Positions 1,142 to 62,572 of a DNA stretch of 64,000 bases are shown one piece after another. The notes under the pieces are model-generated. The model saw only the letters and a list, made by a program, of their open reading frames with translations. It searched no databases and had not been told where the DNA came from. Numbering within the stretch: the first letter of the stretch is position 1; every line of letters starts with the position of its first letter. This DNA is from Macrostomum lignano (Eukaryota). The position numbers were made by a program, and so were the translations under genes. The DNA is taken from the NCBI GenBank assembly GCA_002269645.1, contig NIVC01003085.1:1-64000 (forward strand), given 5' to 3'.

Positions 1142-3689
1142 CAAAGAATGACATCAATACACAGAGCCAGGGATCCTCCTGTGACAGCTGAGAGACGTGG
1201 CTCTGCTAGCTACATACCTCCACCCCCAAGCAAGAAAGATGTATTGCAGCAAAAGGTAGGTTTGCATAGGTGTGATAAAATACTTGTTTTCAGGTTTTGT
1301 GTCTACTGGGAATTGAAGATATTATCTAATGAAGAATTGGGATATTATCTACTGAGGAATTGGGATATTATCTACTGAGGAATTGGGATATTATCTACTG
1401 GGGAATTGAAGATATTATCTAATGAAGAATTGGGATATTATCTACTGAGGAATTGGGGATATTATCTACTGAGGAATTGGGATATTATCTACTGAGGAAT
1501 TGGGGATATTATCTACTGAGGAATTGGGGATATTATCTACTGAGGAATTGGGATATTATCTACTGAGGAATTGGGATATTATCTACTGAGGAATTGGGAT
1601 ATTATCTACTGAGGAATTGGGATATTATCTAATGAAGAATTGGGATATTATCTACTGAGGAATTGGGATATTATCTACTGAGGAATTGGGGTATTATCTA
1701 CTGAGGAATTGGGGATATTATCTACTGAGGAATTGGGGATATTATCTACTGAGGAATTGGGATATTATCTACTGAGGAATTGGGATATTATCTACTGAGG
1801 AATTGGGGTATTATCTACTGAGGAATTGGGGATATTATCTACTGAGGAATTGGGGATATTATCTACTGAGGAATTGGGATATTATCTACTGAGGAATTGG
1901 GATATTATCTACTGAGGAATTGGGGATATTATCTACTGAGGAATTGGGGGTATTATCTACTGAGGAATTGGGGATATTATCTACTGAGGAATTGGGGGTA
2001 TTATCTACTGATGAATTGGGATATTATCTACTGAGGAATTGGGATATTATCTACTGAGGAATTGGGGGTATTATCTACTGATGAATTGGGATATTATCTA
2101 CTGAGGAATTGGGATATTATCTACTGAGGAATTGGGATATTATCTACTGAGGAATTGGGATATTATCTACTGAGGAATTGGGGGTATTATCTACTGGGGA
2201 AATCAGATATTGCTTGAGAAGAAACTGTCATTCTGACTCATTTAGACTACAGATACATTAAATTTTTTTATCCTCTACTGCCTTCGTCCCGCTCAGTAGA
2301 AAAGCGCGCAAATTGTAACTATTATTTAACTCACATTTAAAAACGCCCCTCCCCTAAGGTCGCCGGCGCCGCCACGCCTGGAGACGCCAGGGCGGCCAGT
2401 CTGGACCGCTCGGCGCTACCGCCGCCGCAGCCGAAGCCAAAACCGAAGCCCAAACTGAAGCCGGGCTCCTCTAGCGCCGACGCCGACGAAGCACCTAGAG
2501 TTGTCGACGCTGCCGAGGCCGGCGGCGGAGTCCGGCGCCACTCGGACGAAGACGCCGATCCGGGGCCGGCGGCGGCGGCACTGACCAGTCTGGGCGCGGC
2601 AGCGGCGGCGGCTGGGCCCACTTCTCGGACGTCGACTCGGACACTGGCCTCATCAGCGGCTCGGCCGCTGGCCGCGAGCCTTTGGCCGGCTCGACCGCTG
2701 CCGCAGCATCCACTGGCGGCCGCGGCGCCTCTCGCCGACGTCATCGTCGGGCCGCCTCGTCGTCCTCGGCAGAAGGCGGCGTCGGGGGATCCAAAAACGA
2801 CGACGGCGACGATGTCGATGATGACGATTCGACGTCGGATTCGGACGACTCCGACAGCCAGGCTGGCGACGCGCCCGACGACCGGCACAAGTACGTTGAG
2901 GGCAACGGCGGCGGCGCTGGCGGCTTCGAGGATGAAGAGGACAGCTCGGATCCGCTGGCCATGACCCGCGAGCAGCGCGAGTACTACGCCAACCAATTCC
3001 TCACCCTGTGCCCCAGCCTCACCGGCCGCATCACCGGCCCAGTGGCCAAGCAGTTCTTTGAGAAGTCCCGCCTGCCCCCGCCCGAGCTGTCCCGCATCTG
3101 GGCCCTGTCCGATCGCGACATGGACGGCCAGCTCAACCTGGCCGAGTTCTCCACCGCGATGCACCTGGTCGTGCTGAGGCGCAACAATGTGCCGATACCC
3201 GACAGGCTGCCCCCTGTTGCTGCCGGCTACGAGCCGCTGTCCGACCAGGACGAGGCTTCGCCGCCTCCGACGATGCCGCCGCCACCGCCAATTCACCAGC
3301 AGCAGCCGCCGCCGGAGCCGTCAGTCTTTGGCGGAATTCCTCCAACCGGTGTTGGCGTGCTTCATCCGACCCCTAGGAAACCGACAGCGCATCAGCAGCA
3401 GCATCTCCTGCAACAGCACGCCGACCCGTCCGCTCCGACTGTGCCGCCACGAGCTGCCAGCTATCAGCTGGCGTCCTCCGCTGCTGCCGCCGCCGCTGCT
3501 GCCGACGCCGCCGCTGTTGCCTCCGGCCAGCCGCCCAATCGGGAACGCCTGCTAGCGGCGGTGAAGGCTCAGAAAGAGAAGAATCACACCCTGGTTAGGC
3601 TCAACAATGAACTGGCTGTCGAGCTCAAGGAGGTCACCGAGCAAAGGATTGCCTTGGAATTGGAGTTGGAACGGCTGAAACCGCTTTAA
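1142..3689 (+). CDS. REPS: REPS1/REPS2-like (RalBP1-associated EH-domain protein), 3' part. Exons 1142-1255 and 2359-3689, with an apparent 1-nt frameshift near 2562-2565
   Basis: EH domain (MTREQREYYANQF...AKQFFEKSRLPPPELSRIWALSDRDMDGQLNLAEFSTAMHLVV) and C-terminal coiled coil (KNHTLVRLNNELAVELKEVTEQRIALELELERLKPL*) match my recollection of REPS1/2. Phase-0 sites: ccag|CAA at 1142, AAG|gtagg at 1255, cctaag|GTC at 2359. N-terminal exons would lie outside the window. Confidence 0.85.
1307..2200. repeat. Intronic minisatellite, 23-25 bp unit GAGGAATTGGG(G)ATATTATCTACT
   Basis: Tandem copies read directly. Confidence 0.97.
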
Positions 3690-5392: not shown

Positions 5393-6449
5393 TATGCCAT
5401 TCTACTCGTAATAGTACTAAAAGTACTTTAGTATGGACAATTCCCGTTCCATACTCCAGTCCAAATTTTAGATTGTTAACTGATTTCTGACGGGCGGGCT
5501 AACAAACTAACCATTGATTTTTTGTGCAGTTGAAATTTATTTTGTTTTGCAATCTACTGAATCACACGTTCTCAGTAGTCACTATTGCACTCGATTCAAC
5601 TAATAATCAAATGCCCGACACTCAAATCTCCCAGCTACAGTCACCGTACTCTCTTCCTTCTCTGTGTGTTTCATAATAATATTTCCAAGTGTAAGATTTT
5701 GGACCAGGATAAATTCAGATTCTCGATTGTACGCGGCGGTAGCGGCTTTCGCACCTTATTTATTATCCTCATCAATGCAAGCACTCTCTCGTTAAGATTT
5801 AATTGAACTTATTACATGCTTATTATATTACAGTACTATAGTACAAATATATACATATAGAGCTCAGATAGAGACTATAATTATAACCCTTGGAATGTTG
5901 CGCAGACCTGCGCGAAGTCTGTGCAAAGCTTACTTTAGGCGTTCACAAATAGCGTAACTGTTATTACTTTGACAAACTTTTATTTATTTTGATTCTTCGT
6001 AATAAGAAACACTATCTGCTCTACTTATGAGTAGCACCCATTGTATGGGATGCTTGACCTTCAAGGCTTTCTGTATCAGCGTGTTGTCGCCAATGCTGCT
6101 TCTTAGTGAGTTACAATTTAACGCAAGTGGAACTCTACATCTAGCAGAAATTGTAAAATTTCTAGCTCTTTGCAAGGATATCTTCAACTTTAAAAGATTG
6201 ACTAGCAATCTAGTGCCCCCTTCGTGGCGCGCAATATGCAAGGAGCAAAAATCATTCATGGAAAACAGTTAAAAAAGCACATTTTCTTAAGAATTCTTCA
6301 GTTTTAAAATCACCTTATTCGAGTAAAATTGTCACGGTCAAAGTCAAAGATGTTTGTTGGCTATGAAGTTTTTTTTTAAAAATTAACAAAGACGACAAAA
6401 TGAAGCTTTCACAATGATAACAGACATTCCCCTAAACAGAAAACATCCC

Positions 6450-7232
6450 AAGACAGCAAGCATCCCCCAGCTGATAGCAAGCATGCCGCAGATAACAAGT
6501 ATCTCCCAGATAGCAAGCACCGCCCTCCAAGAGTAAGCAACCGCATATCATCCCCTGATAACAAGCACCCCCCCAGATAGCAAGCATCCCCTGATAGCAA
6601 GCATTCCCAAGATAGCAAGCATTCCCAGATAGCAAGCATCCCTGATAACAAGCACCCCCCCCCCCAGATAGCAAGCATTCCCCAGATAGCAAGCATCCCC
6701 CAGATAGCAAGCATCCCCTGATAGCAAGCATCCCCTGATAGCAAGCATTCCCAAGATAGCAAGCATTCCCCAGATAGCAAGCATCCCTGATAACAAGCAC
6801 CCCCCCCCCAGATAGCAAGCATTCCCCAGATAGCAAGCATCCCGCAGATAACAAGTATCTCCCAGATAGCAAGCACCGCCCTCCAAGAGTAAGCAACCGC
6901 ATATCATCCCCTGATAACAAGCATCCCCCAGATAGCAAGCATCCCCCCAGATAGCATCCCCCAGATAGCAAGCATCCCCTGATAACAAGCATCCCCCAGA
7001 TAGCAAGCATCCCCCAGATAGCATCCCCCAGATAGCAAGCATCCCCTGATAACAAGCATCCCCAGACAGCAAGCATCCCCCAGACAGCAAGCATCCCCCG
7101 ATAGCAAGCATCCCCTGATAGCAAGCATCCCCCTGATAGCAAGCATCCCCCAGATAGCTAGCATCCCCCAGATAGCATCCCCAGATAGCAAGCATCCCCC
7201 AGATAGCAAGCATCCCCCAGATAGCAAGCATC
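6450..7232. repeat. GATAGCAAGCATCCCCCA (17-19 bp) satellite, left part
   Basis: Read directly; resumes at 13193. Confidence 0.97.
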
Positions 7233-7965
7233 ACTACGTAATGCGCAGATAGAGCAGGGTTTTCAGGCAGATTTGACGCAAAAAACGCAAATTATACTAC
7301 TATCTGAAAATGAAGTAAGTAGTATACAAAAACGCTATCCTAAGCGTGATGTGGCAATATGTAGTTGTAATAATCCATGTGCTCATATTAATACCATGTA
7401 CATTAATCCCTATCTATCTCAAATTGTACATTAATTCCATGTACATTAATCCCTATCCCAAATTGTCTATCCCCAATTCTATATGTACATGTGCATTAAT
7501 CTACAGTGTCATCCCCAGCGCGCGCGCACCAACATTACATGTACAATGCTACATGTACACAGAGGCGAGAATTACTAATCTCATCTACTACCAAATGAGT
7601 CAACTAACCGTGTAGCGTACATCATGTATAAGTATTTACAATGAAGATATATTTACATTTAATCAGTAGCATATTACAGGAAATAATTTATGTACAGCAT
7701 TACCAGCAAATAGAATATACAGAAAATTTTACATTGTTTTTCATTAATTTTCTTTTCATAAATAATTTTAAACAAGTTTGACACGCAAAATATGTACAAT
7801 AGATTTTTACATTGGCAATTTCGCTGCATACAATACAAAAATGCTTTATGTACATTTGTATAGTAGTATGTAACTCTTCATTAATTTAACATGCAAAATA
7901 TGTACAACAATAAATAGATTTTACTCAGTCAAATTTAACAAGATATTTATTAAGCAAGGGCCACA

Positions 7966-10854
7966 TTATTTATAACCATAAGGCCTGCTGCAGGCCCCGT
8001 ACACGCGCTTCGTCAGGACGCGCTGAAACGTCTTGTCCATATTGATTGTGTGTATGGTACAAGACGCCTTGTCGCGCCTAAACTGAAGCTGCGGCAGCTG
8101 CAGGGAGCCGCCGTGTAGTAGGGCACTGCGCAATTCATCGCTGCGCTCCCGAATCTCCGGAGTCAGGCGGATGCCCTTGCACTTCAGGACCTGACTCCGG
8201 GCACCGGCCGCATCCTCGACAATGTAAGTGTAGAGTTTGGGCCCCCCACTTACAAAGTCGGTCATCCGGCTGCCTGCGGGCACCTCATCGGTCCACATTC
8301 CGAGGCTCGTGCCATGGGGCGGCTCCCATTGGCCCTCGGAATGCCGGTAAACGACCCTGTGTGGGAGAGAAAACGAGATAATTGCTAACTATTTACATGT
8401 AATCAATTCTAAAATAATTTTCCCAATGCAATACTTACGAGTCAGTGTCGCAGTAAATGGCCCGTTCGCCGAGCCCCTCCAATGCCTCATACAGGCGCAG
8501 CCGGGCCTGAGTGGTCGTAAAGACCCCGATTGGCACATTGGAGTACCGGAACGGCCGCTGATTAAAATAGCGGTGCCGGTACTCTAGCAGCATAAACTCG
8601 CTGCCAATCGGTTCGCAGGCCTTGACTTTGAGGTTGGGGTCGGTCAGCCGGGCGAGCCAGTCCTCGTAGCTGGATACAATTTCTGTCGATGTCAGGTCAT
8701 CACGCTGACAAAATTTGCCCCAGAGCCTGTGTGTTGTGAAAAGAAGTGCTACTGTTAGTAGAAGAAGAAAATCATTTAAAATACAAAAATTTATGAATAC
8801 TTACGAATTCAAAAAGATTTTCGCTACAAAGCGAAGTCCTGGGTTGGGCTCGACCTTGTCCAGCGTGACGCCCTCCTTGGCGTAAAAATCGGCAATGTAG
8901 GCGGCCTTGTCTTCATCCGACATGCCGGGGGAACCGCTCGACTCAGCCTTCAGCTTGAGAAAGGTGCTGACATAGTCACTGAACAGACCGGTCCGCTTCT
9001 CTGTCCAGTAGGCCAGCGCGTGCACCGCCTGCAGCCGGTAGCCCAACTGGAAGGCCTTCCGCAGCTCCGGCGTTGCCCAGGTACCAGTCAGTGCCCGCTG
9101 CTGGTCAGAGTGGTCGCAGCACTCGCCGCACTGCTGCTCCATACAGGTGCGGCAAAGCCCAAAAAAGAGCTTCTTTTGCACCCTGTAGGGCAGCAGCGGA
9201 ATGTGCAAATCTGACGGCGGCAGCACTGTCACCTTGGCAATGCCAAAGTAGCTAGCCAGCGCGTCAGAATCGAGCACTTGCGGCGTCGGATGTTGCACCG
9301 GGTGGCCAATCGGGTATGGGTCTTTCGACTGCACCGTCGGGTACAGAGAGACCTGCCAGTTGAAATAAAGCATTATTTTTTTTCATAAACTGTATTTTTT
9401 GCAAAATATTCTACTATATTAGTAGTATCGCTACTCACCACATCCCGATATTTGAGAGTCTCAGTCTCGCTGGCCACAGCATGCGGGATAAAGCACTCTA
9501 CGCGGCCACCGTAGAGCGCATCCTCCATCTTGAGCGGAGCGCGCAGATGTGCAGTTGCGGCGATAAAGTCGGCCTGCGACGCCAATACAGTGTCGTACTC
9601 ATGCTCCCAAATGACTCGAACACTGTAATTGTGCCGCTCCAACTCGCGAGTGAACCACTCAGTCTCGTGGCGAATATGGCTCAGAGGCTGCCGTTTGAGC
9701 GGGTGGACGACATCCTGATCGGGCATACACTGCTCGCAGCCATGGTAGAAACAGCCATGAAACTGCAAAACAGTGTTGCTCGCCTCATCGAAGCCGTCCA
9801 CCTTGCGGCCGAGAATGACAGCCTCGCCGCCAGTCGAGTCGCAGGTTCGCAGCCGCCCGCCAAATTCGGTGGCATTCAAATAGGCCAGCCACTTGCGCGC
9901 CTTGAACGACTGCTGGTCGGCCTGCCGGGCAATCACGCCGACCGAGTTGGGCTCCATAAACCGGGTGGTGAAAACGGCCATTGCCAAACTGGCAATCGTA
10001 TTGGCCTGAACAAATGGTTCCAGGCCGTCGCAAATTTCACCAATTATTGCCCTGTACTTGATGCAGCCCTCGCGAAGCAGGACTGTGTCGCTCAAACAAT
10101 AATCGAGATATTCCCGATTAAAGTTGAACAACTCGCCCTGTCGCGAGGCTAGCCAAGCACAGATTGAGTCATAGTCCTTGTTCGCTTTGCCGCCATAATA
10201 TTCAATAGCCGGGTAGGGGCCAACGTAGTTCCAATTAGCCGGCTTGTTAAACTCGTGGGGAAAGGTCCCCTTGGCCAGCTTTGTGTTAGCGAGCCCCAGA
10301 GCTTTGGGGAATTGCGCAAGCGGGATTGGTATAAAATTTAATGAATCTTTAAATACCAATTTATCCACCGTCATGCTCATTAGCCGGCTGCCCTGGAACA
10401 GTACTTGTGGCCGCTTCTTGGCCAGGCCGTTGAGTAGAGCGCCAAGCAGTAGGAACGAATCGTAGCCTGATGCATTGTGCGCTACAACAATGGCGCCGCC
10501 TCGGAAAGCTGTGCTCAGCCAGGTGAAAAACGCATTCAGCGAGGCCGGGCCCACAGCCACAAAATCGGCCATTTGGCAGGCGCAGTCTGAGTGGCTGACG
10601 CAATTGGAGAATTCCTCCCCCAGATCGCGGCCAGTCAGACAATTGGCGGCGCTATGCAGGCCATTGCAGAGGCGGCAAGTCTCGCGCGGAAACGCCCGGC
10701 CGGAGCAGGTCTCGCAGCACGTGACGGCAGTCACCAGGTGCACGTGATGCTGCTTCTCCTCGTCCGTGTATGTTTCCGTATCGTAGAACACGTACGGCAT
10801 AGTCGAAGCTTTCACTTTGGGAGCCTTGACGGAGCACAAATGCGGGCATGTCAA
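7966..10854 (-). CDS. polB: Protein-primed family B DNA polymerase (5'-truncated). Exons 10854-9439, 9352-8805, 8726-8439, 8356-7966
   Basis: Exo I (FYDTET), Exo II (AHNASGYD), Exo III (YCLSDTVLL), Vsr-like insert (VDGFD...FHGCFYHGC...IWEHE), YGGRVE, motif A (YRDV|VSLYP), motif B (KIFLNS|LWGKF), motif C (YCDTDS|VVY) and GPKLY. Exon lengths 1416+548+288+391=2643 nt, in frame. Confidence 0.93.
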
Positions 10855-10892
10855 GTGCCCACTGTGTAAACAGTACGACGAGGCCGGCTCGC

Positions 10893-12459
10893 AGATGGAG
10901 GATGCGCTCTACGGTGGCCGCGTAGAGTGCTTTATCCCGCATGCTGTGGCCAGCGAGACTGAGACTCTCAAATATCGGGATGTGGTGAGTAGCGATACTA
11001 CTAATATAGTAGAATATTTTGCAAAAAATACAGTTTATGAAAAAAAAATAATGCTTTATTTCAACTGGCAGGTCTCTCTGTACCCGACGGTGCAGTCGAA
11101 AGACCCATACCCGATTGGCCACCCGGTGCAACATCCGACGCCGCAAGTGCTCGATTCTGACGCGCTGGCTAGCTACTTTGGCATTGCCAAGGTGACAGTG
11201 CTGCCGCCGTCAGATTTGCACATTCCGCTGCTGCCCTACAGGGTGCAAAAGAAGCTCTTTTTTGGGCTTTGCCGCACCTGTATGGAGCAGCAGTGCGGCG
11301 AGTGCTGCGACCACTCTGACCAGCAGCGGGCACTGACTGGTACCTGGGCAACGCCGGAGCTGCGGAAGGCCTTCCAGTTGGGCTACCGGCTGCAGGCGGT
11401 GCACGCGCTGGCCTACTGGACAGAGAAGCGGACCGGTCTGTTCAGTGACTATGTCAGCACCTTTCTCAAGCTGAAGGCTGAGTCGAGCGGTTCCCCCGGC
11501 ATGTCGGATGAAGACAAGGCCGCCTACATTGCCGATTTTTACGCCAAGGAGGGCGTCACGCTGGACAAGGTCGAGCCCAACCCAGGACTTCGCTTTGTAG
11601 CGAAAATCTTTTTGAATTCGTAAGTATTCATAAATTTTTGTATTTTAAATGATTTTCTTCTTCTACTAACAGTAGCACTTCTTTTCACAACACACAGGCT
11701 CTGGGGCAAATTTTGTCAGCGTGATGACCTGACATCGACAGAAATTGTATCCAGCTACGAGGACTGGCTCGCCCGGCTGACCGACCCCAACCTCAAAGTC
11801 AAGGCCTGCGAACCGATTGGCAGCGAGTTTATGCTGCTAGAGTACCGGCACCGCTATTTTAATCAGCGGCCGTTCCGGTACTCCAATGTGCCAATCGGGG
11901 TCTTTACGACCACTCAGGCCCGGCTGCGCCTGTATGAGGCATTGGAGGGGCTCGGCGAACGGGCCATTTACTGCGACACTGACTCGTAAGTATTGCATTG
12001 GGAAAATTATTTTAGAATTGATTACATGTAAATAGTTAGCAATTATCTCGTTTTCTCTCCCACACAGGGTCGTTTACCGGCATTCCGAGGGCCAATGGGA
12101 GCCGCCCCATGGCACGAGCCTCGGAATGTGGACCGATGAGGTGCCCGCAGGCAGCCGGATGACCGACTTTGTAAGTGGGGGGGCCCAAACTCTACACTTA
12201 CATTGTCGAGGATGCGGCCGGTGCCCGGAGTCAGGTCCTGAAGTGCAAGGGCATCCGCCTGACTCCGGAGATTCGGGAGCGCAGCGATGAATTGCGCAGT
12301 GCCCTACTACACGGCGGCTCCCTGCAGCTGCCGCAGCTTCAGTTTAGGCGCGACAAGGCGTCTTGTACCATACACACAATCAATATGGACAAGACGTTTC
12401 AGCGCGTCCTGACGAAGCGCGTGTACGGGGCCTGCAGCAGGCCTTATGGTTATAAATAA
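10893..12459 (+). pseudogene. polB: Mirror copy of the pPolB polymerase-domain exons (introns 10985-11071, 11620-11697, 11986-12067); lacks exonuclease; G7 versus G6 run at ~12177-12183 shifts the last exon
   Basis: Reverse complement of the left arm; same splice sites; AATAAA at 12474-12479. Confidence 0.88.
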
Positions 12460-13192
12460 TGTGGCCCTTGCTTAATAAATATCTTGTTAAATTTGACTGA
12501 GTAAAATCTATTTATTGTTGTACATATTTTGCATGTTAAATTAATGAAGAGTTACATACTACTATACAAATGTACATAAAGCATTTTTGTATTGTATGCA
12601 GCGAAATTGCCAATGTAAAAATCTATTGTACATATTTTGCGTGTCAAACTTGTTTAAAATTATTTATGAAAAGAAAATTAATGAAAAACAATGTAAAATT
12701 TTCTGTATATTCTATTTGCTGGTAATGCTGTACATAAATTATTTCCTGTAATATGCTACTGATTAAATGTAAATATATCTTCATTGTAAATACTTATACA
12801 TGATGTACGCTACACGGTTAGTTGACTCATTTGGTAGTAGATGAGATTAGTAATTCTCGCCTCTGTGTACATGTAGCATTGTACATGTAATGTTGGTGCG
12901 CGCGCGCTGGGGATGACACTGTAGATTAATGCACATGTACATATAGAATTGGGGATAGACAATTTGGGATAGGGATTAATGTACATGGAATTAATGTACA
13001 ATTTGAGATAGATAGGGATTAATGTACATGGTATTAATATGAGCACATGGATTATTACAACTACATATTGCCACATCACGCTTAGGATAGCGTTTTTGTA
13101 TACTACTTACTTCATTTTCAGATAGTAGTATAATTTGCGTTTTTTGCGTCAAATCTGCCTGAAAACCCTGCTCTATCTGCGCATTACGTAGT

Positions 13193-13500
13193 AGCATCCC
13201 CCCAGATAGCATCCCCCAGATAACAAGCATCCCCCAGATAGCAAGCATCCCCCCAGATAGCATCCCCCAGATAGCAAGCATCCCCTGATAACAAGCATCC
13301 CCCAGACAGCAAGCATCCCCCAGACAGCAAGCATCCCCCAGATAGCAAGCATCCCCTGATAGCAAGCATCCCCCAGACAGCAAGCATCCCCCAGACAGCA
13401 AGCATCCCCCAGATAGCAAGCATCCCCTGATAGCAAGCATCCCGGCCCCTGATAGCAAGCATCCCCCCTGATAGCAAGCATCCCCCCAGATAGCAAGCAT
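13193..13500. repeat. GATAGCAAGCATCCCCCA satellite, right part
   Basis: Read directly. Confidence 0.97.
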
Positions 13501-14329
13501 CTTTGGATAGAAAGAATCCCATACATGTAGCTAGTACCCCTCTCTCCCAAATAGCAAGTACACCCCCCCCCCTAGAGAGCCTAAGATATCAGCATCCCCA
13601 GTGAGCTTTGGCAATCAGACTCCCTTGTAAGCCATGGCTTAAACCCTAACTCTCCCTTTGACCTGCCTTTGGCTTGGTGCACCAACAACTTCCAATTGAT
13701 CCTTGGCATCTCAGCAACCGGCCTCCATGAGTCAGCCCAGGTGGCACGAAGTACTTTAGAAGTACTTAACTAAGTCTTATCGCAGCAAAATTACATTTTA
13801 TTACTGTGTAGTGAATTAAATATTTTTAAGCAAAATTAATAGAGATTTAAGTGACACGCGCACCTGAGAACAAGAAGAATACGAGCTATGAATGGACCTA
13901 CAATTTGCCAGAGGGAGTAGTTTTGGAGTGCAAGCAAGCTTCGTAAAAGTCAAGGTACGAGTGGTACATGGACCTGATCGGTGGCTGTAGAGTGTAGACT
14001 GTTTGGCTGTCAAATGCATAAAAATGGCCGTTCAACAAACTGTCCTGTCAACCTCCCGAGAATTTCGCTTTAATATGTCTCATAGTTTAATGTGAGTTCT
14101 TAGAGTAGAGGTTTGCGTTTTTTTCTTGTGAGATTTTAATTTTGACCAATTAGGCTTACCTTAAGTCCCACAATCACTGCTAATCGCAAAGAACTTTTGG
14201 AACTCTTAATTTTAGCTTTAACTTCGAATGCATTATGTTCTTGACTTTGTCCTGCGAATTATTATAAATATCTAATGATAGCAACACTTACTTTATTGGA
14301 TTCCCTTTCCATATAAACTATCAGAGGGT

Positions 14330-16639: not shown

Positions 16640-17775
16640 GTAGAAAACTTAGCAGCCACATTCACAAGATCGAAATTTCGCAACGCAGAAAACTACACTG
16701 CATGGTTCTTGTTATATCAGGTTTTCGACGTGAAATTTCGGGGTCCACCCCAACTGCCGGCCGGAAAACTGCTAGTCGACAACTGCCAGCCGACAACTGC
16801 CAGCCGGAAAACTGCCAGCCGACAACTGCCAGTCGACAATTGCCAGTCGACAATTGCCAGACGACAATTGCCAGCCGAGAAAACTGCCAGCGAGAAAAAC
16901 GCTAGATGTACGCCAGACAAAGCGTTTGTACGCCGGAATTTTCCGGCGTACACTACACCTTCCGCAATATGGCATTCAGGATCTAGCTAGAAAGTAGACA
17001 GCTTTGTTTACTATTTATTAAATCAGTTTATTATTCAGCAAAAACAGGTTGCCATTGCATTGTTACAGAAATCAGTTAGCCTAGCTACAAGTTGTTTTGT
17101 TTTATCGCCAACAAAAGTTTGTAAGCTTGTGCGGCATGTGCGCGAATCAGAGCTGGCAACTTTCGGCTCCTGCACGAACATCTTGGTTCAAATTTCGTAT
17201 TTTAGGTAGCCTTTGCTCTTTCTTTGAAAGCTTTATTTAAGTAAAGTAATTTAATAGACTTTTCTAGGATTGCGTCATATAGCAATCGCAATCGCAAATT
17301 AAATAATAAAGTAAATGAACTTTCAATACAAATATATTTACAATAGGCATTACAGAATGCCTTCTCTTTCACATATACACTTCTAATGGAAATCTGAAAA
17401 AATTAGGGAAGGGAAGGGCGACATTTAAGGCTACCCCACAAGCCTTTTGCTAGCCAAACAGTTTCGTACTTTTTACTTAGCTAATAAGTAGGCTACAGTA
17501 GATTCAATTAGCTAGAACTTGTCGGCTGGCAGTTGTCGACTGGCAGTTTTCCAACTGGCAGTTTTCTCGGCTGGCAATTTTCGGCTGGCAGTTGTCGGCT
17601 GGCAGTTGTCGGCTGGCAGTTGTCGGCTGGCGGTTTTCCGGCTGGCAGTTGGGGTGCTCCCGAAATTTCGAGCTAATAAAGTTTCGACCCTGTGAAAGTG
17701 GCTGCTATTCAAGTTTTTAATGTGAAATTTCGACCTTGTGAAATAATTTTCTTTTAGACCTGTGAAAGCACCCCG
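16640..17775. mobile_element. MITE-like inverted pair (arms ~16640-16905 and ~17515-17775) with internal CGACAACTGCCAGC subrepeats; partial third copy ~18385-18500
   Basis: GAAATTTCGGG..CACCCCAACTGCC(G/A)GCCGGAAAAC is shared in opposite orientation. Confidence 0.6.
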
Positions 17776-26690: not shown

Positions 26691-26899
26691 GAGAAGCTGA
26701 TTACTGCGCTGTCTAAAAAAGAGATTATTGCGCTCGCTGAGACGTGGATTGTTGCACAACCTGAGAAAGTGATTATTGCATTAGCGGAAGTAACATTTGC
26801 ACTAGCTACTTGCTGTCTCGTGGATGCTTGCTCTCGAGGGGGATACTTGCTATTTGGGAGAGGGGGTACTGGCTACATGCATGGGATTCTTTCTATCCA

Positions 26900-27170
26900 G
26901 GGATGCTTGCTATTTAGGGATTCTTGCTATCTGCAGGATGCTTGCTATCTGGGTGGATGCTTCTATAATATCTGGGGGGTGCTTGCTATCTGCAGGATGC
27001 TTCTATAATATCTGGGGGGTGCTTGCTATCTGCAGAATGCTTGCTATCTGGGTGGATGCTTGCTATCTGGGTGGATGCTTCTATAATATCTGGGGGGTGC
27101 TTGCTAATCTGCAGATGCTTGCTATCTGTGGTGATTCTTGCTATAAGCATTAGAGGATGCTTGCTATCTG
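26900..27170. repeat. GGATGCTTGCTATC satellite (reverse orientation of 6450-7232)
   Basis: Read directly. Confidence 0.9.
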
Positions 27171-60000: not shown

Positions 60001-62572
60001 TTGAGCGGTATAGGGCGATTGAGGACCAGGAGGCAGTGAGTTCGGGGCTGGGGATGAGTAGTGGGATCGGGACTTCGCTAGTTGGGATCGGAACTTTGGT
60101 AGTTGGAATCAGGACTTTGATAGTTGGGATCAGGACTTTAGTAGTTGGGATCAGGACTTTGATAGTTGGGATCGGGACTTTGCTAGTTGGGATCGGGACT
60201 TCGATAGCTAGGATCGGGACTTTGGTAGTTGGGATCAGGACTTTAGTAGTTGGGATCAGGACTTTGATAGTTGGGATCAGGACTTTGATAGTTGGGGTCG
60301 GGACTTCGATAGTTGGGATCGGGACTTCCGTTAGTTGGGATTTGGACTTCCGTTAGTTGGGATCGAGACGTCGATAGTTGGGATCGAGACGTCGATAGTT
60401 GGGATCGAGACGTCGATAGTTGGGATCGGGACGTCGATAGTTGGAATCGGGACGTCGATAGTTGGGATCGGGACGTCGATAGTTGGGATCGGGACGTCGA
60501 TAGTTGGGATCGGGACGTCGATAGTAGGGATCGGGACGTCGATAGTAGGGATCGGGACTTTGGTATTTGGATCAAGACTTCCGTTAGTTGGGATCGGAAC
60601 TTCCGTTAATTGGGATCGGGACTTCCATTAGTTTGGATGGGGACTTCGATAGTTGGGATTTAGACTCAAATAGTTGGGATCGGGAGTCAGAGAGTTAGGA
60701 CCGGTGACTTATGAGTTCGGATTTTATGATCAGGGCTTAATAAATTGGGATCGGGAAACTCCGGCATGGAAACCCAGCAGTCACTGGAAAATAGTGTCGG
60801 ATGCGCTGCTCCCATCCGCAGCTGTCAACCGAAGCCGCCCGCATAGTATACGACTTCATCGGCATCAACGCGCCGCAGTGCGTCAATCTGGACGGCGCCA
60901 CGGTTGAGCAGCTTCGCGCCGATATTCTGGACGCCAGTCGGCCGCCGCCAAGTCGACACGCGTTCGACAAGGCGCAGCGGCACATCTACGATCTGATGCG
61001 GATGGACAGCTACGCCAGGTTCCTCAAGTCCAGCTGCTACCGGGAGGCTGTGGCCGCGGCCGCAGCACAGCGACAACAGCGACCGTTGACTATCGGGGCC
61101 GAGACTCTCGACAACGGCGGCGGGGCCAAGCGGCGCGGCTTCTTGGCGAGCTTGGTTCGCGGTGAGCTGGCCTTGCCACGGTCCTTACTCTCAGAGTCCC
61201 GATCCCTACTCCCAGTCCTGATCCCTACTCTCAGAGTCCTGATCCCTACTCTCAGAGTCCTGATCCCTACTCTCAGTCCCGATCCCTACTCCCAGTCCTG
61301 ATCCCTACTCTCAGTCCTGATCCCTACTCTCAGTCCTGATCCCTACTCTCAGTCCCGATCCCTACTTTCAGATTCCCAATCCCTGCTCTCGGAATCTTGA
61401 TCCCTACTTCTTAGTTTTTAATCCCAAATTTGAGTCCTAATTTTATTTAAATTCCAATCGCTTCTTAGCGCTTATTTCGGAAGGCCCCTTTTACTAGGAA
61501 TTAAAAATTGTGTAAATTTTTGGCTACTAAAACTTATTAAACAATTGTTTATACAGGCCGCACGCTGAGACGCCACTCCGATCAGCAGCAGCAGCACGGA
61601 TCTCGGTCACCGTCACCTCCGTCTGCATCAGCGCTGCCCACCGCTGCGGGCTGCTGCCGCGTTCAGCTGGCTGACGGCTCCTCGGCTCTGCTGGACGTTC
61701 GCGGCGCAGCCGGCCAGCAGCAGCGCAGCCTGCGCGAGGCCCTGCTAGATCTCTGCGAACGGCGCGGCCTCAACTTTGCCGCCGCTGAAGTCCGCGTGCT
61801 CAACGACGACGAGCCCGACGGTGTCAGCGGCAGCGGCGGTCTGGACGCTCCACTGTCGGCGTTCGCTGGCCGGCAAATCCGGATGGAACGGCGAGTTCTG
61901 TTCCGGCTAGAGCTGCCAGCCCCAGCCGGCCGGTGCGTCGGTGTCCGAGCTCGGCCAGCCAAATCGCTGCGTGACGTGCTGCGCCCGGTGTGCGGTCGGT
62001 ACGGCCTCCGCCTGGACCGGCTCGTGGTCTGCCGCGAGTCCGGCTTCGTGCCGCTGGGCCTGGACGCTCCGGTTGACTGCGTTGACGGCCTCCGCCTGTG
62101 CGCCCTGCCCAAGGAGGACTTTGTCGGTGAGTTGTGCGGCGTCTGTGGAGCAGGCAGACAAGAATGTTGCTCCCTGTTTCCGGGGGCGCAGTGAGATCAT
62201 GCTCTTTCCCTTATTAGATGGGGTCGTTCCTAACCAAAGAGAAGTCTCCGATTTCGCTTTAAAATATTTCGCGTATGCAAAAAGCCGCCTATTATGATTT
62301 ATTAACCGTTATAGTTACGTAACTTTAACCGCTGTGCTAAGCTAATCAATTAACCTAATTAATTAATCGTTAATCCTGTCACTATTTCGTTAACGCTTCG
62401 ACCCAGCGGATTTATTTGGCCGTATTTGCTTGCAGATTTTCACCTCTTTGGCGACAACAGGGTGCCGCCGCGCCGACGGCAAAACCACCAGCAGAAGTCG
62501 GCCGCCAGTGCGGTCAAAAGATCTAGCATTGGCCATGCGGTGCACAGGCTGCTTAAAAGCTCCTTTGCCTAG
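57021..62572 (+). CDS. RGS12: RGS12/loco-like protein: PDZ (~57080-57317), PTB (~57905-58962), RGS (59655-60035 and 60822-61161), tandem RBDs (61557-62126), last exon 62436-62572
   Basis: GYGFSISGQRPCVV (PDZ); LAFVCAYNEDARYFALLT..FGLNC (PTB); [54 protein letters not shown] (RGS); CCRVQLADG and FRLELP..KSLRDVLRPVCGRYGL (RBD1, RBD2). The start codon and the PDZ-PTB junction are uncertain. Confidence 0.88.
57420..57680. repeat. Degenerate G-rich intronic repeat (GGGGAATTTAAAGCGTGT)
   Basis: Read directly. Confidence 0.85.
58995..59400. repeat. Intronic ~16-bp repeat CTAGCTGGGATTCCCC
   Basis: Read directly. Confidence 0.9.
60060..60680. repeat. Intronic 21-bp minisatellite GATAGTTGGGATC(A/G)GGACTT(T/C)
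   Basis: Read directly. Confidence 0.95.
61185..61400. repeat. Intronic 19-21 bp minisatellite TACTCTCAGAGTCCTGATCCC (inverted relative of 60060-60680)
   Basis: Reverse complement GGGATCAGGACTCTGAGAGTA versus GGGATCAGGACTTTGATAGTT. Confidence 0.9.

Follow-up and report, generated by a model that had tools for sequence, protein, structure and literature searches.

In yeast, large inverted duplications come about when a strand folds back and primes on a short, imperfect inverted repeat (Al-Zain et al. 2023, PMC10622511), adeno-associated virus (AAV) forms snapback genomes (PMC8235507), and long palindromes in the mouse lose part of their centre (review, PMC8701086); here and below, statements about cited papers refer to excerpts of them. 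Fold-back at imperfect repeats, snapback defective genomes and the one-sided deletion of palindromes are, on the evidence of these excerpts, already described (PMC10622511; PMC8235507; PMC8701086). For Mavericks/Polintons, the idea that they replicate through an excised single strand whose ends pair has the status of a model (10.64898/2026.07.28.741278; PMC4046053), and the excerpt of the first of these sources has only short palindromes, at termini. General Maverick/Polinton features and Polinton-linked inversions by ectopic recombination are also on record (PMC6431247; 10.1101/2024.01.15.575659). The string 'Palindrom' has no occurrence in PMC8097293 and 10.1101/2023.08.22.554363, and no whole-element palindromic or snap-back Maverick or protein-primed element appeared among titles and abstract openings, a coverage outside which the founding papers, Repbase and supplements may describe such elements. 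Here we describe a palindromic element of a Maverick-like family in the laboratory flatworm Macrostomum lignano, located in a stretch of 64,000 nucleotides (GenBank assembly GCA_002269645.1, contig NIVC01003085.1, positions 1 to 64,000 of the forward strand; hereafter the window). Its centre appears to record the fold-back of a DNA strand at a natural imperfect inverted repeat. What is new here is that the turning point can be placed to two bases, together with unrearranged relatives, an empty site and a trimmed haplotype in one genome.

The palindrome occupies positions 7233-13192 (~6 kb) of the window, on contig C3085; this and all other C-labels denote contigs of the same genome assembly. 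A repeat search delimited arms of 2.3 kb each (7233-9530 and 10893-13192), separated by 1362 nt, and alignment of the left with the right arm revealed no substitutions and two single-base gaps, both in homopolymer runs. The outer ends on both sides read ACTACGTAATGCG, which is the family terminus, and AGCATC adjoins each element end within a flanking satellite that has the same orientation left and right. The polymerase end of the family is matched by both arms over 2.3 kb, well beyond the terminal repeat, so both ends derive from one parental terminus. The profile PF03175 (pPolB) matches the middle on the minus strand as well as both arms (E = 1.3e-15 for the middle region); the piece is without the start of the pPolB gene and has no complete coding product. 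The features of the locus are as follows.

6435-7232, plus strand: left part of the satellite array, with the same orientation on both sides of the element (from the sequence).
7227-7232, plus strand: left 6-bp target-site duplication AGCATC, inside a satellite unit (from the sequence; other family sites also show 6-bp duplications).
7233-9530, minus strand: left arm, with the terminus, a terminal repeat of ~300 bp and the 3' part of pPolB; putatively the copied-back arm (arm alignment; polarity presumed).
9531-10829, minus strand: single-copy middle, with the pPolB exonuclease region and the next domain; its mirror copy is deleted (PF03175).
10830-10844, plus strand: 15-bp arm of the natural imperfect inverted repeat, with the far-arm letter at 10832; the switch lies within 10830-10831 (comparison with copies).
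10845-10889, plus strand: 45-nt spacer (hairpin loop), flipped relative to 9531-10829 when compared with all natural copies.
10890-10893, plus strand: 4-nt remnant of the other repeat arm; deletion junction with one shared base at 10893 and 1311 nt skipped (comparison with the nearest copy).
10893-13192, plus strand: right arm, with the 3' part of pPolB, terminal repeat and terminus; putatively the arm of the original strand (arm alignment).
10985-11071, plus strand: likely spliceosomal GT..AG intron of 87 nt, in frame, in polymerase motif A; mirrored in the left arm (sequence; one contig).
11620-11697, plus strand: likely GT..AG intron in polymerase motif B; mirrored in the left arm (sequence only).
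11986-12067, plus strand: likely GT..AG intron in polymerase motif C; mirrored in the left arm (sequence only).
13193-13198, plus strand: right 6-bp target-site duplication AGCATC (from the sequence).
13193-13501, plus strand: right part of the satellite array, unbroken at the homologous site on C1039 (homologous loci).

The arrangement at the centre is peculiar to this locus. In a genome search, the whole stretch 10500-11100 was matched only by the window and C4430, and 30 other places matched it as two pieces of opposite orientation. A narrower search, in which all 33 candidates were scored, again returned these 30 unrearranged copies, besides the window, C4430 and C2786; several of these 30 are probably one locus assembled twice, and they should not be counted as 30 independent insertions. 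In every one of the 30, 10830-10893 lies on the opposite strand and immediately adjoins the end of 10500-10847, and the flipped piece is thus a neighbouring part of the same gene. A preliminary description of the window, made from the letters alone, had proposed that a piece of the polymerase gene itself was flipped, and that the parent would hold the His/Cys segment contiguous with the exonuclease region; the 30 natural copies bear out both proposals. The two reading frames that it gave are also present, namely E-H-K-C...G-S on the plus strand from 10832, with the right arm entered at 10893/10894, and H-L-C-S-V-K...FYDTET on the minus strand. In a natural copy the flipped segment sits inside one open frame of 869 aa, and its His and Cys residues, which had been likened to a motif just upstream of Maverick exonuclease domains, are invariant across 10 aligned pPolB proteins, 7 of them only 27-36% identical. 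UniRef matches to this pPolB comprise Macrostomum lignano proteins (95-98% identical) and distant relatives that are themselves pPolB proteins (23-36% identity).

Unrearranged copies with both ends measure ~9.5-10.4 kb and carry terminal inverted repeats of ~250-930 bp and 6-bp target duplications; longer ones contain retroelement or transposon insertions. Their ends read ACTACGTA or ACTACATA and start with ACTAC. Flank matches of 6 bp were found at C1485, C1945, C260, C1159, C566, C694, C2285, C1300, C1263 and C157, two of them in simple repeats. Closest among the unrearranged copies is C1485, with 99.2% identity over 7272-10844; it departs from the window at the tip of the terminal repeat and at four spacer bases, for which reason the family looks recombinant and the direct parent of the window appears not to be among the copies found. 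Two side observations concern these relatives. In C566:83278-92764 and C2009, the terminal repeat is lengthened to ~870-930 bp by a copy of the polymerase end that includes the end of the gene, and C157:54556-84500, C471:23245-37600 and C513:440000-477200 are clusters of nested, rearranged family copies, some end to end.

Comparison with the natural copies resolves the junction at the level of single bases. In these copies, the counterpart of 10830-10844 is the near arm of an imperfect 15-bp inverted repeat whose far arm follows after 45 nt; the two arms show one mismatch in 5/30 copies, two in 8/30, three in 12/30 and four in 5/30. An inverted repeat of up to ~14 bp had been anticipated in the preliminary description; the repeat is there, but none of the 30 copies has it in perfect form. 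At position 10832 the window has G, as does the far arm in 30/30 copies, while the near arm has A in 28 and T in 2. We read this G as a scar of the template switch and not as the parental state. All 15 arm bases of the window are those of the far arm in 5/30 copies and those of the near arm in none, and the far-arm letter at 10832 therefore confines the switch to the outer end of the repeat, 10830-10831. The 45-nt spacer, which shows no differences from 9/30 copies, is retained once, at the centre of the palindrome. A switch on the plus strand would have had only 2 nt of homology, compared with 13-14 of 15 pairs on the minus strand, and we infer from this difference that the minus strand folded back, which would make the right arm the original and the left arm the copy. 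The base at 10840 agrees with the near arm in 30/30 copies and with the far arm in only 5/30; this letter may come from a parent with an identical far arm or from partial correction.

Outer ends of 15-bp repeats with at most 2 mismatches and a spacer of at most 200 nt account for 0.13-0.28% of positions in three natural copies, and for 0.01-0.05% when at most 1 mismatch is allowed. Since such outer ends make up no more than 0.28% of positions, the fall of the turning point on a repeat is not chance. Across the 9.5 kb of the C566 copy, the sole 15-bp repeat axis with at most 1 mismatch is this one; a 100-mer over it has a predicted DNA hairpin energy of -25.3 kcal/mol, compared with -24.6 for the best of 470 tiled windows, and its on-grid neighbour ranks second. 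Only 4 nt of the other repeat arm remain; the next 1311 nt that the nearest natural copy has are missing from the window, with one base shared at the join, in agreement with the deletion of ~1.3 kb at a 1-nt microhomology that had been postulated. The template switch at an inverted repeat, followed by copying back, was likewise anticipated, and the position of the turn on a natural repeat with a retained mismatch at 10832 agrees with it. We regard fold-back at this repeat itself as close to certain. We also considered and rejected the idea that the repeat is a conserved signal, as the far arm breaks the pairing at one position in 25/30 copies and 17/30 have 3-4 mismatches. The repeat comes from two His-x-Cys codon runs and is, as we interpret it, a by-product of them with no dedicated signal.

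This junction resembles the products of the known systems in part. As in the yeast fold-backs, a large inverted duplication turns on a natural imperfect repeat and keeps the spacer as its centre; the yeast repeats measure 11 bp with 2 mismatches or 5 bp with a 35-nt spacer, and the repeat in the window 15 bp with a 45-nt spacer (PMC10622511). The yeast events are chromosomal, induced by breaks and directed toward the chromosome end, whereas the palindrome in the window stops at an element terminus with a 6-bp duplication (PMC10622511). AAV snapback genomes share with it the inverse duplication of one end of a linear DNA and, in their asymmetric form, a loop; they replicate only with a helper, as is predicted for the piece in the window (PMC8235507). 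AAV differs in its hairpin ends and Rep, and its authors favour end joining, while the element in the window sits in the genome of its host and bears terminal repeats like those of protein-primed elements (PMC8235507). In palindromes of mouse transgenes, too, a one-sided deletion breaks the central symmetry with little or no homology at the join; the deletions here, of 1.3-1.6 kb, lie in a natural mobile element (PMC8701086).

A search with the right flank of the insertion site identified four homologous loci: three contain the palindrome, one is empty, and an unrearranged element is absent from all of them. The structure of C4430 is that of the window, with no substitutions in the tested flanks. 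The C2786 haplotype differs by 2 substitutions in 3.6 kb of element and by 1-8 per flank stretch; it has the polymerase end on both sides and a larger one-sided deletion, from ~10828 to 12396 with 2 shared bases, which takes out the entire flipped piece. C1039 is 2-5% diverged and has an uninterrupted satellite and no element. C4430 and C2786 were rejected as new insertions, as they have their flanks in common with the window. From this survey of homologous loci, we conclude that the insertion is recent and that its centre has been trimmed at least twice. The loss in C2786 is either nested in the 1311-nt loss or independent of it; both would fit.

Palindromes are not confined to this site. In a terminus search of the genome, in which the best 40 of 223 candidates were scored, several end pairs proved to be palindromes. 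We counted 11 others (C301, C903, C3637, C293, C2132, C2205, C657, C600, C409, C2274 and C462) that lie at different sites; each has the same termini, flanks that match over 6 bp and inverted arms, which range from 1.7 to 4.8 kb. The majority of them stem from a non-polymerase end. One centre sequence with a spacer of ~48 nt, which we call the C301 type, is common to nine palindrome loci; this comparison took in 10 of 13 loci, and a search with that centre scored 40/40 candidates. These relatives, with a shared centre and their own 6-bp duplications at many sites, suggest indirectly that palindromic products spread between sites as units. The unrearranged parent of the C301-type palindromes was not found among these candidates. 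Arm-to-arm identity within an element is mostly 99.7-99.9% (lower in C293, C2274 and C462), and C301, C903 and C362 are only ~95-97% alike among themselves. Two processes could account for the high identity of the arms: templating of one arm by its partner during each replication, or chromosomal gene conversion. Compared with C301, both C903 and C3637 have lost part of one arm beside the centre; taken together with C2786, these losses indicate that one-sided central loss recurs in the family. In C2274:68844-76546, both arms share one recombinant junction between the polymerase 3' end and a C301-type interior. C2132:148104-157572 is a separate palindrome, derived from an end that bears dUTPase; its spacer measures 888 nt, and one arm harbours a THAP/P-element-like transposon. 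C2539, a palindrome at the same site, runs off its contig. As we count them, there are at least three independent turning points in the family.

Other candidates were not counted as palindromic relatives: in C1299a, C1299b, C1526 and C816 the ends were not found, C2539 is the one that runs off the contig end, in C247 the ends were found and long arms were not, and the duplication of C362 is unconfirmed. In one follow-up set, 8 of 10 stretches were not two-ended palindromes. The C301-type lineage (C301:37567-47128, C903, C657, C2205, C600, C409, C3637, C293, C462 and others) is gene-poor, near-perfect and up to ~9.5 kb long. In C362:496201-525260, a palindromic element is followed by two head-to-tail repeats of one half, with a period of ~9.86 kb.

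How did the palindrome come about? A related route is that of engineered, non-integrating adenovirus mini-chromosomes, whose ends are repaired when a displaced single strand bearing one terminus pairs with itself at an inverted repeat in its interior and so restores the other terminus. For the window, the likely course is, in our view, fold-back priming on a free element copy of ~9.5 kb, insertion of the resulting palindrome as a unit by an integrase supplied in trans, and trimming on one side. DNA synthesis would have started at the polymerase-end terminus (at 13192, on the minus strand of the window), and the new strand would have run ~3.7 kb inward and stopped or broken just beyond the second repeat arm. 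Its 3' end would then have paired back on the first arm, keeping a mismatch three bases from the end, and the strand would have copied itself to the terminus, yielding a hairpin that opens as a palindrome of ~7.3 kb with two identical ends. An integrase supplied in trans would have inserted this palindrome into the satellite, and its centre would have been trimmed one-sidedly, with the 1311-nt loss occurring before or after insertion and a further loss in the second haplotype. We place the fold-back outside the chromosome because of the clean ends, the 6-bp duplication, the lack of an unrearranged allele among the homologous loci and the mobile relatives. The palindromic piece is predicted to be a passive, helper-dependent passenger.

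An origin within the chromosome would leave an identical final structure: an inserted full element would have broken, folded at the repeat, copied to its terminal repeat and rejoined through its other terminal repeat, as the two terminal repeats of a copy match at their tips. The palindrome is known from one site only, as such an origin would have it, and in yeast, where fold-backs form near natural imperfect repeats, secondary repeat-mediated events rescue them (PMC10622511). However, an unrearranged element is seen at 0/4 homologous loci, ~6 kb of far-side resection would be required, and palindromic relatives with a shared centre occupy many sites, each with its own 6-bp duplication; we therefore hold this course to be unlikely. 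Still less probable, in our judgement, is a single replication event with two template jumps via a displaced strand, in which the flip and the 1.3-kb loss happened together and a complete 7.3-kb palindrome never formed. A complete centre is indeed found in none of the 33/33 candidates, the deletion begins just 4 nt into the repeat arm, and AAV has asymmetric snapback genomes (PMC8235507). Against this, one-sided central deletion recurs as a later step (in C903 and C3637 compared with C301, and in C2786 at the same site), and long palindromes in mouse cells usually meet with asymmetric deletions (PMC8701086); moreover, two jumps would alter the order of steps only, and not the switch at the repeat. 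We can scarcely credit an artefact of assembly or library, for instance a chimeric long read that folds back on itself, or copies joined wrongly. The arms lack any substitution, the junction is missing from the short-read contigs listed and C4430 is perhaps not independent, all of which an artefact would explain; however, the slightly diverged haplotype C2786 shows the polymerase end left and right and a central deletion of its own, the empty homologue C1039 runs collinear with the flanks, the turn sits on the best natural repeat with the diagnostic mismatch retained, and a read chimera would not end at an element terminus and then resume in the correct flank.

Several observations weigh against fold-back on a free copy followed by insertion in trans. 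The 6-bp match at this site lies in a tandem repeat, where it comes cheaply, and is weak taken alone. No integrase was detected in the family (14 elements by tblastn, 108 frames of 4), and the integrase matches described below disclose no helper for elements with ACTAC ends. Of the 30 copies, 0 have an exact far arm together with an exact spacer: where the arm is identical (five copies), 2-4 bases of the spacer differ. C4430 may be the same haplotype assembled twice, in which case the junction stands only in the window and its duplicate. Neither junction of the window was bridged among the listed matches to short-read contigs of 7 public runs; the parental join was present in 3 of the 4 short-read runs examined for it, and such contigs, which drop rare variants, show presence and not absence for a single-site variant of a multi-copy family. 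This palindrome occurs at one site only among the 33/33 candidates, so that its own mobility is only putative. Finally, mismatches in yeast fold-backs are corrected, whereas the mismatch in the window is kept (PMC10622511).

From the single-strand model, one would expect a by-product of just this kind: a palindrome with its turn on a natural repeat, a retained mismatch, and outer ends at the element termini beside a target duplication. If the family is the reduced, self-synthesising lineage considered below, the junction would be a base-resolved record of the birth of such a palindrome, including its strand polarity, and genomic evidence for an extrachromosomal single-strand stage of Mavericks, a stage proposed long ago. 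The mechanism at the junction is textbook and the copy codes for nothing complete; the weight lies in the pattern across the family, in which mirror-image relatives at many sites hint at how such elements copy their DNA.

The assignment of the family rests on its ends and its gene content. Like Mavericks/Polintons, it has pPolB (PF03175), terminal inverted repeats of a few hundred base pairs, 6-bp duplications and many recent copies (PMC8097293; 10.1101/2023.08.22.554363). Mavericks/Polintons are 13-25 kb long, and those of vertebrates end in (AG)3 or (AGT)2, in contrast to ~9.5 kb and ACTAC here, and intact vertebrate Mavericks are intronless, in contrast to the three likely introns in the polymerase of this family (the excerpts of PMC8097293 and 10.1101/2023.08.22.554363 for size and ends, and of PMC8097293 for introns). 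In terms of the features by which Mavericks are recognised, pPolB, terminal inverted repeats in the range of 100-1500 bp and a 6-bp target duplication (5-8 bp) were found, while an integrase, an ATPase or capsid gene, a length of 13-25 kb and the (AG)3 or (AGT)2 end motif of vertebrates were not. We class the family as Maverick-like and not as a member of the Mavericks because the ends and target duplication fit and the integrase, capsid and size do not.

Besides pPolB, some copies have PC4 and dUTPase domains. The Maverick integrase, ATPase and capsid went undetected in the family. Two natural rve proteins of this genome, used as tblastn queries for the integrase, matched none of 14 elements at E<0.05, whereas three positive controls did give matches, and there was no rve among 108 short frames of 4 elements, where a diverged gene split by introns could escape. 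The packaging ATPase and the major capsid protein were found neither in the 14 elements by tblastn nor in the 108 short frames, and the latter contained no maturation protease. Two genome-wide profile searches carry no such information: PF00770 (protease) matched nothing, controls included, and PF04665 (ATPase) gave no match although Pfam found ATPases in capsid-bearing elements, so that this result has no weight. Separate Mavericks in the same genome hold rve, ATPase and double-jelly-roll capsid genes; two of them with both ends (C211:350291-366670 and C175:252847-272745) have AGTAG termini and 6-bp duplications. Their integrase has at least 116 close matches among 1820 candidates, with 87-100% identity and of one family. 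We see an evenly balanced case for a reduced self-synthesising lineage, with an intron-bearing pPolB and in some cases PC4 and dUTPase, but lacking integrase and capsid genes of its own, that would replicate as a free single strand, form snap-back palindromes from either end and spread by a borrowed integrase.

At the likely intron at 10985-11071, one contig of run X16 skips 87 nt, from GT to AG. Each of the three likely introns lies within what we take to be a catalytic motif (A, B or C) of the polymerase. On the minus strand, the polymerase stretch at 9620-9900 of the window resembles by eye an insert of a VSR-type nuclease, and one distant homologue is so named. Elsewhere in the window, satellite arrays face inverted copies of themselves at 16734-17668, 26863-27064 and 60080-61427, and the second of these arrays repeats, in inverted orientation, the satellite into which the element is inserted. 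An open frame with EH and EF-hand domains at 2499-3689 is probably a host exon.

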